The notes beneath the pieces were generated by a model, which searched no databases, had not been told where the DNA came from, and saw nothing but the letters and a program-made list of their open reading frames with translations. From Octopus vulgaris (lineage: Eukaryota), in assembly GCA_951406725.2 (NCBI GenBank), contig OX597818.1, positions 128,092,001-128,156,000 on the forward strand: DNA of 64,000 nt, read 5' to 3'. Both the position numbers and the translations under genes were made by a program. Of the stretch, positions 52,146-54,823 are shown piece by piece; position 1 is the stretch's first letter; each line of letters opens with the position of its first letter.

Positions 52146-54784
52146 CGTGAGTGTGTGTGTGTGTGTGTTTGCGTCTCACCACTTGACAAATGGTCTTAGT
52201 TTGTTTACATCCTCATGACTGAACAATTCAGCAAAAAACATTATGATAGAATGGATTTGGTTGAAGGAAACTGAAAGAAATCTGTTGTATATAATTCATA
52301 TATCACGTGATCACGTGACCGACCAGACCATCAGATGTTGTTACACATTGCTGGTCACAATGTGTTCGCATTGTTTAGCCACCCCGCTGGCTAAGCGAGC
52401 AAGCCAACAGAAGAAAGAGTGGTGAAAGAGTACAGCAGGGATCACCACCCCCTGCCGGAGCCTCGTGGAGCTTTTAGGTGTTTTCGCTCAATAAACACAC
52501 ACAACGCCCGGTCTGGGAATCGAAACCGCGATCCTGCGACCGCGAGTCCGCTGCCCTAACCACTAGGCCATTGCACCTCCACATATAATTCATATATACA
52601 TAGATACATACATATGTCCACCTTGTACATGTCTATGTGTGTGCGAGTTTATGTTTACCCTTGTCTAGATATCATGTGATGGTTGTCAATAAGCATCATC
52701 TCATACAAGTCTTCCAATGAAAAACATGTTTAACTGTGGGAAAATATTTCCTTGCTTGGAAACAGGTGAGGGTGAGTAAAAGAAAGTGCATACAACCATA
52801 GAAAATCTGCCTGAACAAATTCTATCGAATCCATTGAAGTATGGAAAATTGGACATTAAATGAGGATGATATTTGCACCAAGACTTTCTACCCATGTAGT
52901 TTATTAACTGGTCAAGCTAATAAAAAAATTTGCTGATTTTAGTAAAGTAACTTGGATTATAAATTGTTATATCAAGCTGATATCTGGAACACAACTCAAA
53001 AAAAAAATTGTCCTGTATAAAACTATGATGGAATTATTAGTTGAAATCCCATGTTATCATTCATATAACAATGAAATTTGTATAAGATTTTCATTTAAAT
53101 ATGGGCATTTTTATGTAAATTCTGCTGGGAAAACTTGATGGTTTTTAAATGATTGACAGAAATAGTGTGGTAACATGTTCAGTGACCTTGAGCAATATAT
53201 ATGATGGCATTTTAGTTGCTATGAAACAATGTAATACTTTACATGGTGCTTTTGTGATTGAGACATTTTCTTAAAAAAATAACTGTGACCTGATTACCCA
53301 AATGCAGCAAAATTTTTCTTTGCTTTTTACTGCATTGATGTGTTCAGTTACAATATGATTTTGTTATAGGTAGATAACTTCAGATTGACTAGTTCAGCAT
53401 TGGTAAAGAAACTATCATGACATATATGAATGGTCTAAATAGATGAAAATTTTCAGTCTATTAGTTAGGCTATAGTGAACTGTTCTTACCATTCTGCATT
53501 GAAGCATGATGCAACACTAGTCATTTCAGATTATATCATGCAAAGTATACTGCATGTTGATTTAAATTTTCATCCTTATAAGAAATAATTCCATACGATT
53601 GATAAAGGTAGAAGATTTTTGTTGAAAACATGCTTGTGATGTGCATGGTTCTTCTTATGAGTGATGAAGTACATTTTCATCTGTATGCACGTAAAAAGCA
53701 CCATCCGATCATGGCCGTTTGCCAGCCTCATCTGGCATCTGTGCCGGTGGCACATAAAAAGCACCCACTACACTCACGGAGTGGTTGGCGTTAGGAAGGG
53801 CATCCAGCTGTAGAAAAACTGCCAGATGAGACTGGGCCTGGTGCAGCCTTCTGGCTTCCCAGACCCCAGTTAAACCGTCCAATCCATGCTAGCATGGAAA
53901 GCGGACGTTAAACGATGATGATGATGATGCTTGCATAAATAAGCAAAACTTCCAAACTTCTGCTGGACATCATTTCACAACAAATTAATCTGTACTCTGT
54001 TGTGTCTGGGGAGAGTCATTTTCAACACACGAACTCATATAAAGAATCTTGCAAACCAAATCCAAAGACGAAATATTAATCTGTACTCTTTTCACTGAAA
54101 ATATTTATCAGTGTAGTAATGTGTGGCAAACTTTGGCATGATAGACTTATTCTTCTTTGAAGAGGTCAGATATGCAATATCTGATTACATTCTGATTGTT
54201 ACATGTTCATGCTGCTCAACTTCCTTACCTCAGGATTGAACAAATGTGACATTAATATATAACATAAGATGGAGCACCCACCTATACAACGAAGGCTTCC
54301 ATGGAATTATTAAGAAAGTGTTTACCAACTATGTCATTTCTGAACTTGGTGACATATTATGACTTTTTAATTGCCTGATATTTCTTTCAGTTTTTGGCCA
54401 ATGTTATTTTCAAGACGATATAAATAGTTAATTATGTGTTGCTAATAGGTTTATAAATGGTACACATTGCTTTGAATGTTTATACAATAAGGTGGTTGCT
54501 AATGTCTTCTGTTTGTAATATTCATTAAAACCATCAAATTTTTCTGCTGGACATTGTATGGGCTGTTACATATGGATTAGTAACAGGGATCAGATGTAGT
54601 CTCAGGCAAGTTGACATTCGGAAGATTAAATATAATGAAAAAAAATTGTGATATTGTATACAGTTATTAAATAAATCAAATATTCTTATTTAATTTCAGA
54701 GTAACAAGAGCTGACTATTTGAATACATTTGAATTTATTGATAAAATTGCTGAAAATCTGAAAACTCTGATGACTTCCATATGA
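14087..54784 (+). CDS. IDH1: NADP-dependent isocitrate dehydrogenase, cytosolic type (IDH1-like), 12 coding exons, 410 aa
   Basis: Manually spliced: 14087-14102, 15469-15508, 33286-33392, 35361-35447, 37489-37649, 39585-39728, 40600-40667, 44723-44791, 46373-46524, 46652-46792, 48589-48751, 54700-54784 = 1233 nt, open frame, all GT-AG. Family motifs [76 protein letters not shown]. No mitochondrial presequence; in-frame TAA upstream at 14006-14008. Confidence 0.95.
14107..14555. repeat. (ATCT)/(GTCT)/(GTAT)n microsatellite block at the start of IDH1 intron 1
   Basis: Direct inspection. Confidence 0.9.
15002..15226. repeat. Near-perfect palindrome, 109-bp arms, 7-nt loop
   Basis: 15002-15110 vs 15118-15226, one mismatch seen. 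Confidence 0.9.
15469..15508 (+). CDS. IDH1: IDH1 exon 2 ([14 protein letters not shown])
   Basis: Polypyrimidine tract + ag acceptor; donor gtttgt. Confidence 0.95.
15651..15941 (+). repeat. Local tandem duplication containing (CA)n
   Basis: tttatttggtgaacgtttgttttaaccgcacg(ca)n gggtgtgtatattaaaaatcctaaaatcct occurs twice. Confidence 0.85.
18235..18463. mobile_element. TTAA-flanked MITE, family 2
   Basis: TTAA|CCCTTTTGATACC...GGTAACAAAAG(G/T)G|TTAA; other copies 37745-38495 (interrupted), 47862-48090, 48970-49197. Confidence 0.75.
18683..18910 (+). mobile_element. Penelope-type terminal repeat fragment with a hammerhead-like motif
   Basis: Shares ccgacgaagagctccgctcgaaacgttaaacc...ttgttccacgtcct...gtttggattaacttta with about 51580-51890; abuts (TA)n. 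Confidence 0.55.
19805..20200 (-). mobile_element. SINE family B
   Basis: Full-length match to family B; other copies 27525-27920+, 31047-31285-, 58945-59190+. Confidence 0.85.
20821..21000. mobile_element. TTAA-flanked MITE, family 3
   Basis: TTAA|CCCCTTACCC...GGGTAAGGGG|TTAA. Confidence 0.75.
21436..22724 (+). mobile_element. Tc1/mariner superfamily DD37D (maT-type) transposon, decayed
   Basis: TA|CAGGGTG...CACCCTG ends; HTH ORF 21538-22029; QQD-37 aa-D (QQDSEPCH...SSDCKPLDY); frameshifts and stops. Confidence 0.85.
22750..22985. other. CpG-rich, highly self-complementary island of unknown identity
   Basis: Nested inverted repeats (ctagcaag/cttgctag, atcag/ctgat, tgcgc/gcgca, gccgt/acggc, ggggcct/aggcccc), single copy in this window. 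Confidence 0.45.
25690..26332. mobile_element. Possible Helitron/HINE-like fragments
   Basis: gcaacgccgggtcatagtgttagt (25984-26007) resembles a Helitron-type 3' end; tatatatagagagat (about 26332) resembles a 5' end on the minus strand. Confidence 0.35.
26845..26927 (+). repeat. 20-bp minisatellite x4 (tgcttaatgtcctagccaca)
   Basis: Direct inspection. Confidence 0.95.
26963..27256. repeat. Compound (AAT)/(GAT)/(GGT)n microsatellite
   Basis: Direct inspection; source of the poly-His/Asp/Gly ORF artefacts. Confidence 0.95.
33286..33392 (+). CDS. IDH1: IDH1 exon 3 ([35 protein letters not shown])
   Basis: ttcag acceptor, gtaata donor, IDH homology. Confidence 0.95.
33737..33969 (+). mobile_element. 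SINE family A with a 16-bp TSD
   Basis: tatataagatggtatc at 33719-33734 and 33970-33985. Confidence 0.88.
33986..34270 (+). mobile_element. Mariner 5' fragment
   Basis: [31 protein letters not shown] resembles the mariner transposase N-terminal HTH. Confidence 0.65.
35361..35447 (+). CDS. IDH1: IDH1 exon 4 ([29 protein letters not shown])
   Basis: ctcag acceptor, gtaag donor. Confidence 0.96.
37489..37649 (+). CDS. IDH1: IDH1 exon 5 ([17 protein letters not shown]...GRHAYGDQ)
   Basis: ttcag acceptor, gtaag donor; contains the Arg132-equivalent GRHA. Confidence 0.97.
37815..38325 (-). mobile_element. L1/Tx1-like LINE fragment with 3' tail, nested in a family 2 MITE
   Basis: Minus strand ends ...gtaatgtccccctctgtgtaagccctttatgggtaataa, similar to the 9110-9175 tail. 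Confidence 0.55.
38987..39337. mobile_element. hAT-type MITE
   Basis: TIRs CAGTGGTTCTCAAC / GTTGAGAACCCCTG; no clean 8-bp TSD. Confidence 0.7.
39585..39728 (+). CDS. IDH1: IDH1 exon 6 ([14 protein letters not shown]...GMYNTDQ)
   Basis: tgcag acceptor, gtgag donor. Confidence 0.97.
40109..40535 (-). mobile_element. Mariner transposase 3' fragment with one TIR
   Basis: [23 protein letters not shown] motif; TA + ttgggtcatcccataaataa end. Confidence 0.85.
40600..40667 (+). CDS. IDH1: IDH1 exon 7 ([23 protein letters not shown])
   Basis: ttcag acceptor, gtatat donor. Confidence 0.95.
42584..43070 (-). mobile_element. CR1-like LINE 3' fragment with (TAAC)n tail, nested in a family 1 MITE
   Basis: [22 protein letters not shown]...GHSEKL...[13 protein letters not shown] is a typical CR1-group ORF2 C-terminus. 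Confidence 0.85.
44723..44791 (+). CDS. IDH1: IDH1 exon 8 ([23 protein letters not shown])
   Basis: ttcag acceptor, gtgagt donor; catalytic Lys212 equivalent. Confidence 0.97.
46373..46524 (+). CDS. IDH1: IDH1 exon 9 ([23 protein letters not shown]...[13 protein letters not shown])
   Basis: tttag acceptor, gtatgt donor; metal-binding Asp residues. Confidence 0.97.
46652..46792 (+). CDS. IDH1: IDH1 exon 10 ([16 protein letters not shown]...[11 protein letters not shown]...STNSI)
   Basis: tgcag acceptor, gtaaac donor; NADP-binding motif. Confidence 0.97.
48589..48751 (+). CDS. IDH1: IDH1 exon 11 ([17 protein letters not shown]...[14 protein letters not shown])
   Basis: cacag acceptor, gtaaat donor. 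Confidence 0.97.
49545..49962 (+). mobile_element. SINE family B (young copy)
   Basis: Full-length match. Confidence 0.88.
50374..50778 (-). mobile_element. SINE family B (young copy, inverted relative to 49545)
   Basis: Full-length match; an older minus-strand copy lies at about 49993-50370. Confidence 0.88.
50918..51487. mobile_element. MITE-like element with about 55-bp imperfect TIRs enclosing microsatellites
   Basis: aggaagttctgctttctgctgagaaaa / ttttctcagcagaaagcacaacttcct. Confidence 0.5.
54700..54784 (+). CDS. IDH1: IDH1 terminal coding exon ([27 protein letters not shown])
   Basis: ttcag acceptor; matches human [24 protein letters not shown] at 54782-54784. Confidence 0.95.
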
Positions 54785-54823
54785 CTCGGCAGATTTAAGC
54801 CAATAACTGAGAGTAAATTATGA
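54782..54823 (+). other. In-frame post-stop extension X-LGRFKPITESKL* (cryptic PTS1)
   Basis: TGA CTC GGC AGA TTT AAG CCA ATA ACT GAG AGT AAA TTA TGA read directly; translation of it is inferred. Confidence 0.7.

Follow-up and report, generated by a model that had tools for sequence, protein, structure and literature searches.

Peroxisomal targeting signals of type 1 (PTS1) concealed behind a UGA stop codon have been described or predicted for several metabolic enzymes. Stiebler et al. (2014, PMC4207609, Fig. S3B) predicted readthrough signals on the NADP-dependent isocitrate dehydrogenase (NADP-IDH) of Drosophila, Apis, Tribolium and Aplysia californica, the Aplysia prediction reading TGACTA, N16, SKL, and the fly case is repeated in a review. 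In Ustilago and HeLa reporters UGA CU suffices for readthrough, and a level of about 1% was argued to be enough given that peroxisomes occupy 1-2% of cell volume (PMC4207609); the high-readthrough consensus is UGA CUA (G) (PMC5868278 and a review). At human MDH1, where the context is UGA CUA and Trp and Arg are inserted at the UGA, altering +5 or +6 brings readthrough down from 4.3% to 0.4-0.8% and the 50 nucleotides behind the context are dispensable (PMC5133446). Here we describe the IDH1 gene of Octopus vulgaris, contained in a window of 64,000 nucleotides of contig OX597818.1 to which all positions refer unless otherwise stated. We propose that this gene, besides a 410-residue enzyme lacking a peroxisomal signal, probably yields by readthrough of UGA-CU a minor 423-residue form whose terminal SKL would direct it into peroxisomes to supply NADPH.

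The layout on which this proposal rests is confirmed. On the forward strand, the first stop lies in a TGA CTC context (54782-54787) that has the UGA CU core and lacks the A of the CUA consensus. An in-frame extension of 12 codons follows (LGRFKPITESKL, 54785-54820), its last three codons (AGT AAA TTA, 54812-54820) spelling the PTS1 tripeptide Ser-Lys-Leu, before a second TGA (54821-54823) with CTT next to it. The letters after the first stop read CTC GGC AGA TTT AAG CCA ATA ACT GAG AGT AAA TTA TGA; the frame thus remains open up to the signal and the parent protein itself has no PTS1. The earlier note on this DNA had described a 410-residue protein ending KTLMTSI-TGA with SKL in frame behind it, a 423-residue readthrough form and a UGA CUC G context in place of CUAG, all of which we recover: the translation and the joined exons agree, 410+1+12 gives 423, and positions +6 and +7 are C and G, so that the full UGA CUA (G) consensus is not present. 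The second stop is itself followed by CT (TGA CTT, 54821-54826), and reading through it as well would lengthen the protein by 56 codons, burying the SKL.

The closest relatives of this arrangement are the Aplysia, Drosophila, Apis and Tribolium enzymes, which share with octopus IDH1 the identity of the enzyme, a UGA CU stop and a short in-frame extension ending in a PTS1; the Aplysia tripeptide is also SKL. They differ in the length and sequence of the extension and in having TGA CTA in all four cases where octopus has TGA CTC, and no cephalopod is among the printed cases. Human MDH1x and LDHBx (PMC4207609, PMC5133446) are likewise cytosolic dehydrogenases with a PTS1 hidden behind UGA CU and no need for RNA structure; these are NAD-linked enzymes with UGA CUA G and a measured readthrough of 1-4%, whereas the octopus case is a prediction from sequence. 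Pre-duplication yeast IDP2 is also an NADP-IDH with a peroxisomal signal hidden in its 3' untranslated region (UTR), which is however reached by a +1 frameshift and not by in-frame readthrough (Yanagida et al., 2015, PMC4526572). A hidden PTS1 on NADP-IDH behind UGA CU was already predicted for insects and the mollusc Aplysia (PMC4207609), and no new mechanism is revealed here. The novelty lies in the cephalopod instance, for which we found no octopus or cephalopod IDH precedent in the open-access literature, the CUC context and a wider spread among animals. Delivery of IDH1 to peroxisomes via readthrough, predicted before for other animals, is now predicted for a cephalopod as well, in a 423-residue form missed by annotation.

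Support for function comes from orthologues. A metagenome scan with the 50 C-terminal residues gave 517 loci, of which the best 80 were each read to their first and second stops. A quick tree of 45 loci and 32 proteins contained a clade, with 99% support, that groups bacterial sequences with others that are apparently non-animal, and 13 loci lay outside it; three of the five short loci outside the tree (L007, L009 and L026) were counted as animal-type by their C-termini, giving 16 animal-type loci, and the 30 lower-ranked loci outside the tree include none with TGA-CT. Nine of the 16 have TGA-CT, and eight of these nine extensions end in SKL, ARL, AKL or SHL, the ninth in SQL. Among the seven loci with other contexts a canonical PTS1 ending occurs once (L010, TGA AGA ... 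SKL). The association is significant (Fisher p = 0.009), a value that is indicative only because some of the loci are related to one another (L017 and L027 being sister loci). The TGA-CT contexts comprise CTA (5), CTG (2), CTT (1) and CTC (1), the last in L017, which pairs the octopus context with SKL; together with octopus, these loci show that a retained PTS1 accompanies UGA before any CUN codon and not before CUA alone. Their extensions span 4-14 codons of unrelated sequence in which the ending is what is retained. The earlier note had proposed to look for UGA-C and SKL in orthologues: the context is paired with a canonical PTS1 in eight of the nine TGA-CT animal-type loci, and with a predicted PTS1 in Aplysia and in insects, and six of the 16 loci have neither feature. 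The L010 extension is insect-like (RSLQSKL), and two non-animal loci, L029 and L042, have TAA followed by extensions ending in SKL and SRL.

Database proteins complete this distribution. Three of them carry W at the stop position and end in SHL, namely P0084 and P0139 (Zophobas cluster) and the fly-like P0088; no W-extended cephalopod protein was found among 22 matches of 25 candidates, which is weak evidence. A native ending in K/R/H-L is found in none of 41 named mollusc proteins (some of them isoforms or truncated), suggesting that molluscs lack the ordinary route to peroxisomes, and in all 29 vertebrate proteins picked for comparison (a selection from the available rows, with three truncated models set aside). 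Among the sequences compared, vertebrate IDH1 ends natively in PKL more often than in any other tripeptide, and Trichoplax IDH1 natively ends in SKL. Vertebrates and Trichoplax have the same enzyme, presumably doing the same peroxisomal job as in octopus, and differ in carrying AKL, SKL, PKL or HKL natively on every molecule, with no stop before the signal. The hidden layout thus spreads over molluscs and arthropods, and the order in which hidden and native signals were gained and lost becomes testable. One further protein, P0127, is 88% identical over residues 140-260, next after Argonauta, and ends ...LKKLYFK with no PTS1; it is possibly squid or cuttlefish IDH1.

A second octopus enzyme shows a similar arrangement. 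Cytosolic MDH1 (G000:C16, L084:850-873) reads ...LSVCE TGA CTG TTT GAT CCT AAA TTG TAA, that is X-LFDPKL, and is likely a second readthrough PTS1 protein with a non-CUA context. Pex2/Pex12-family peroxin genes are present in the octopus genome; a genome search with Pex14_N gave no match, which is uninformative since it had no positive control. No hidden PTS1 was seen on octopine-dehydrogenase-like genes or on MDH-like frames of C17. The latter (G000:C17:67183159-79876435; L085, L086) are seven near-identical long frames weakly similar to cytosolic MDH, 336 residues from ATG in L085 and some arranged as inverted pairs; they are possibly an amplified MDH1B-like gene.

How would the longer IDH1 be made? 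The UGA could be decoded by a near-cognate tRNA (for Trp or Arg at human MDH1) about 0.4-1% of the time, with the local context and not an RNA structure as the driver; PEX5 would then bind the free SKL of the 423-residue form, and the imported dimer might regenerate NADPH for the reductive steps of fatty-acid breakdown. This last role is modelled on yeast, where IDP3 was taken to supply NADPH for the breakdown of unsaturated fatty acids. That no fold above shuffled sequences is predicted at the octopus stop agrees with the dispensable 50 nucleotides at human MDH1, and the +5/+6 effects at the same gene, combined with the argument that about 1% suffices, lead us to expect a low-percentage peroxisomal form. 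The readthrough-PTS1 reading of the earlier note is thus supported, in that it fits the sequence, the orthologues and the literature, from which we infer readthrough itself.

Several observations weigh against this proposal. The CUC context is weaker than the CUA consensus, the text of PMC5133446 does not state whether CUC was among the +5/+6 changes tested, and a Glu directly precedes the SKL. Conservation among animal-type loci is not universal, as seen above, and the main-text passages searched in three fly and mosquito readthrough papers do not mention Idh. The cephalopod 3' UTR comparison covered near-identical relatives only (0-3 substitutions over 310-490 nucleotides), too close to show selection on the extension. 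Some of these points also feed the most serious rival, namely that the octopus layout is a decaying relic in which the signal is still legible and a change from CUA to CUC has lowered readthrough below a functional level: the stimulating A is indeed missing, several animal lineages lack the layout altogether and the UTR comparison is confined to close relatives. Yet both the frame and the exact SKL are intact, and a functionless UTR stretch of 36 nucleotides is not expected to retain both in the long term. Moreover, L017 pairs TGA CTC with SKL, loci with CTG and CTT also retain a PTS1, and the context of octopus MDH1 is likewise non-CUA. We therefore consider a relic unlikely and, judging from these comparisons, a functional hidden-SKL layout most likely.

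Sequencing runs bear on the remaining alternatives. All 24 runs listed are available as contigs and none is recorded as RNA, which makes them uninformative on expression level, strand and rare edits. The IDH1 stop stretch is contained in 20 of the 24, in 14 of them with every one of the 29 words sampled from the unedited sequence. Contigs of four runs were compared (four studies and four coded organisms, one run per organism): in three, a single contig carries the letters of the upstream exon as a loose end at 54699, the spliced junction indicating that these runs are transcript-derived, and the fourth is genomic. In all four the letters between 54700 and 54867 match those of the window, differences being limited to the intron or to the UTR behind the second stop.

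The earlier note had offered adenosine-to-inosine (A-to-I) editing as an alternative switch, in which UGA would become UGG (Trp) at 54784 in some transcripts, turning on the peroxisomal form. The host is a coleoid cephalopod, a group rich in recoding, and contigs lose rare variants, meaning that low or tissue-specific editing could persist unseen. Nevertheless, position 54784 is unedited in all three spliced contigs (low-level editing escapes contigs), and the runs with every unedited word point the same way. No stimulating stem-loop or editing duplex stands above shuffled sequences around the stop: the local fold is ordinary (z between -1.44 and +1.28), and no reverse-complement match in the window exceeds 14 nucleotides, the length of one at 8554-8567, ahead of where the coding exons begin. 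ADARs disfavour a 5' G neighbour, which also counts against editing at 54784, and the layout is common to animals not known for heavy recoding. A search for IDH among known editing sites, confined to one supplement of PMC8382921, found no mention of it. Editing as the switch is thus very unlikely, and we give as little credit to a mixed version in which a weakened CUC readthrough switch is supplemented by tissue-specific editing of UGA to UGG. Were the latter true, RNA editing would act as a regulated on-switch for the peroxisomal import of an NADPH-making enzyme.

Could the SKL be fortuitously in frame within a 3' UTR? Simulated extensions end in SKL 4.6-5.0 times per 10,000 and in a canonical PTS1 2-3 times per 1,000. 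Gene numbers are of the order of 20,000-30,000, and at 5 in 10,000 a genome should contain some 10-15 SKL endings by chance, which means that the weight rests on the enzyme and its orthologues. The 7322 six-frame stop-to-stop segments of the window include five SKL endings, 14 canonical PTS1 endings and 143 segments behind TGACT; the coincidence of TGACT with a canonical PTS1 occurs in one segment only, the IDH1 extension. Against chance, then, the SKL coincides with a TGA-CT stop, and orthologues of this very enzyme bear a PTS1, either native or hidden after the stop, making a fortuitous signal highly improbable.

Alternative splicing would join the previous exon directly to FKPITESKL through an AG at 54791-54792, whose phase equals that of the normal acceptor, and PTS1s exposed by splicing are described in fungi (PMC4207609). 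This AG, however, has no pyrimidine tract, and its use would cost the protein its last 27 residues, which are conserved (the last helix, aligning with human IDH1 386-408). Only the 54699/54700 junction is seen, the listed loose ends, which leave out 16 weaker ones, include none at 54792, and we regard this route as extremely unlikely. The notion that the TGA is an assembly error or a rare allele, which the earlier note had named as refuting its reading because SKL would then be the normal C-terminus, is rejected as practically excluded: nothing was found in its favour, the same TGA is present in the contigs of all four runs, every Octopus and Argonauta database protein with an intact end (O. 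vulgaris, O. sinensis, O. bimaculoides, Argonauta) terminates at the 54782-54784 stop, and mollusc IDH1s end at about 410 residues. Decoding of the UGA as selenocysteine is also rejected, as no SECIS element matched up to E = 5 in 54650-55200; the same interval has three weak snoRNA matches, all under gathering scores.

The gene itself is well defined. It comprises 12 coding exons on the forward strand from 14087 to 54784, with 11 of 11 introns GT-AG, and the joined frame of 1233 nucleotides encodes 410 residues plus the stop. Exon 1 (14087-14102; MTKIK and one base) and exon 2 (15469-15508) are followed by exons 3-11 between 33286 and 48751 (33286-33392, 35361-35447, 37489-37649, 39585-39728, 40600-40667, 44723-44791, 46373-46524, 46652-46792 and 48589-48751), supported by TIGR00127 matches, splice sites and a joined frame identical to P0006. 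The coding part of the last exon (54700-54781), ending ...KTLMTSI, is joined to the exon ending at 48751, as upstream-exon letters on loose ends at 54699 in three contigs attest. The remaining 3' UTR (54824-55069) has AATAAA at 55045, and the spliced contigs end at 55010, 55059 and 55069. The product matches Octopus vulgaris P0006 at all 410 positions and shares 409 with O. sinensis, 405 with O. bimaculoides and 389 with Argonauta. It is a full-length match to eukaryotic NADP-IDH (TIGR00127 exon matches), nearer IDH1 than IDH2, with bit scores against solved structures of 757 for cytoplasmic chains and about 648 for mitochondrial chains. It starts MTKIKGG with no N-terminal presequence, and the consensus pattern of the type 2 peroxisomal signal (PTS2) is absent from its first 60 residues. 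A family search, with the best candidates scored, gave two NADP-IDH loci in the genome, the window locus and an IDH2-like paralogue on C24 (G000:C24, about 44287027-44287086, L083) that ends ...VDKHL TAA, a PTS1-like, non-canonical native ending; the last IDH1 exon has no second genomic copy besides that of the window.

The 40-nucleotide second coding exon is followed by a 17.8-kb intron (15509-33285), and the introns contain microsatellites and fragments resembling mobile elements (for example 42671-43021), another lying upstream of the gene (7179-8575). Lastly, at protein position 326 (46786-46788 region), which we take to be near the NADP-binding region, the TSTNPIAS of human and other animals is replaced by TSTNSIAS in the IDH1 of Octopus and Argonauta.

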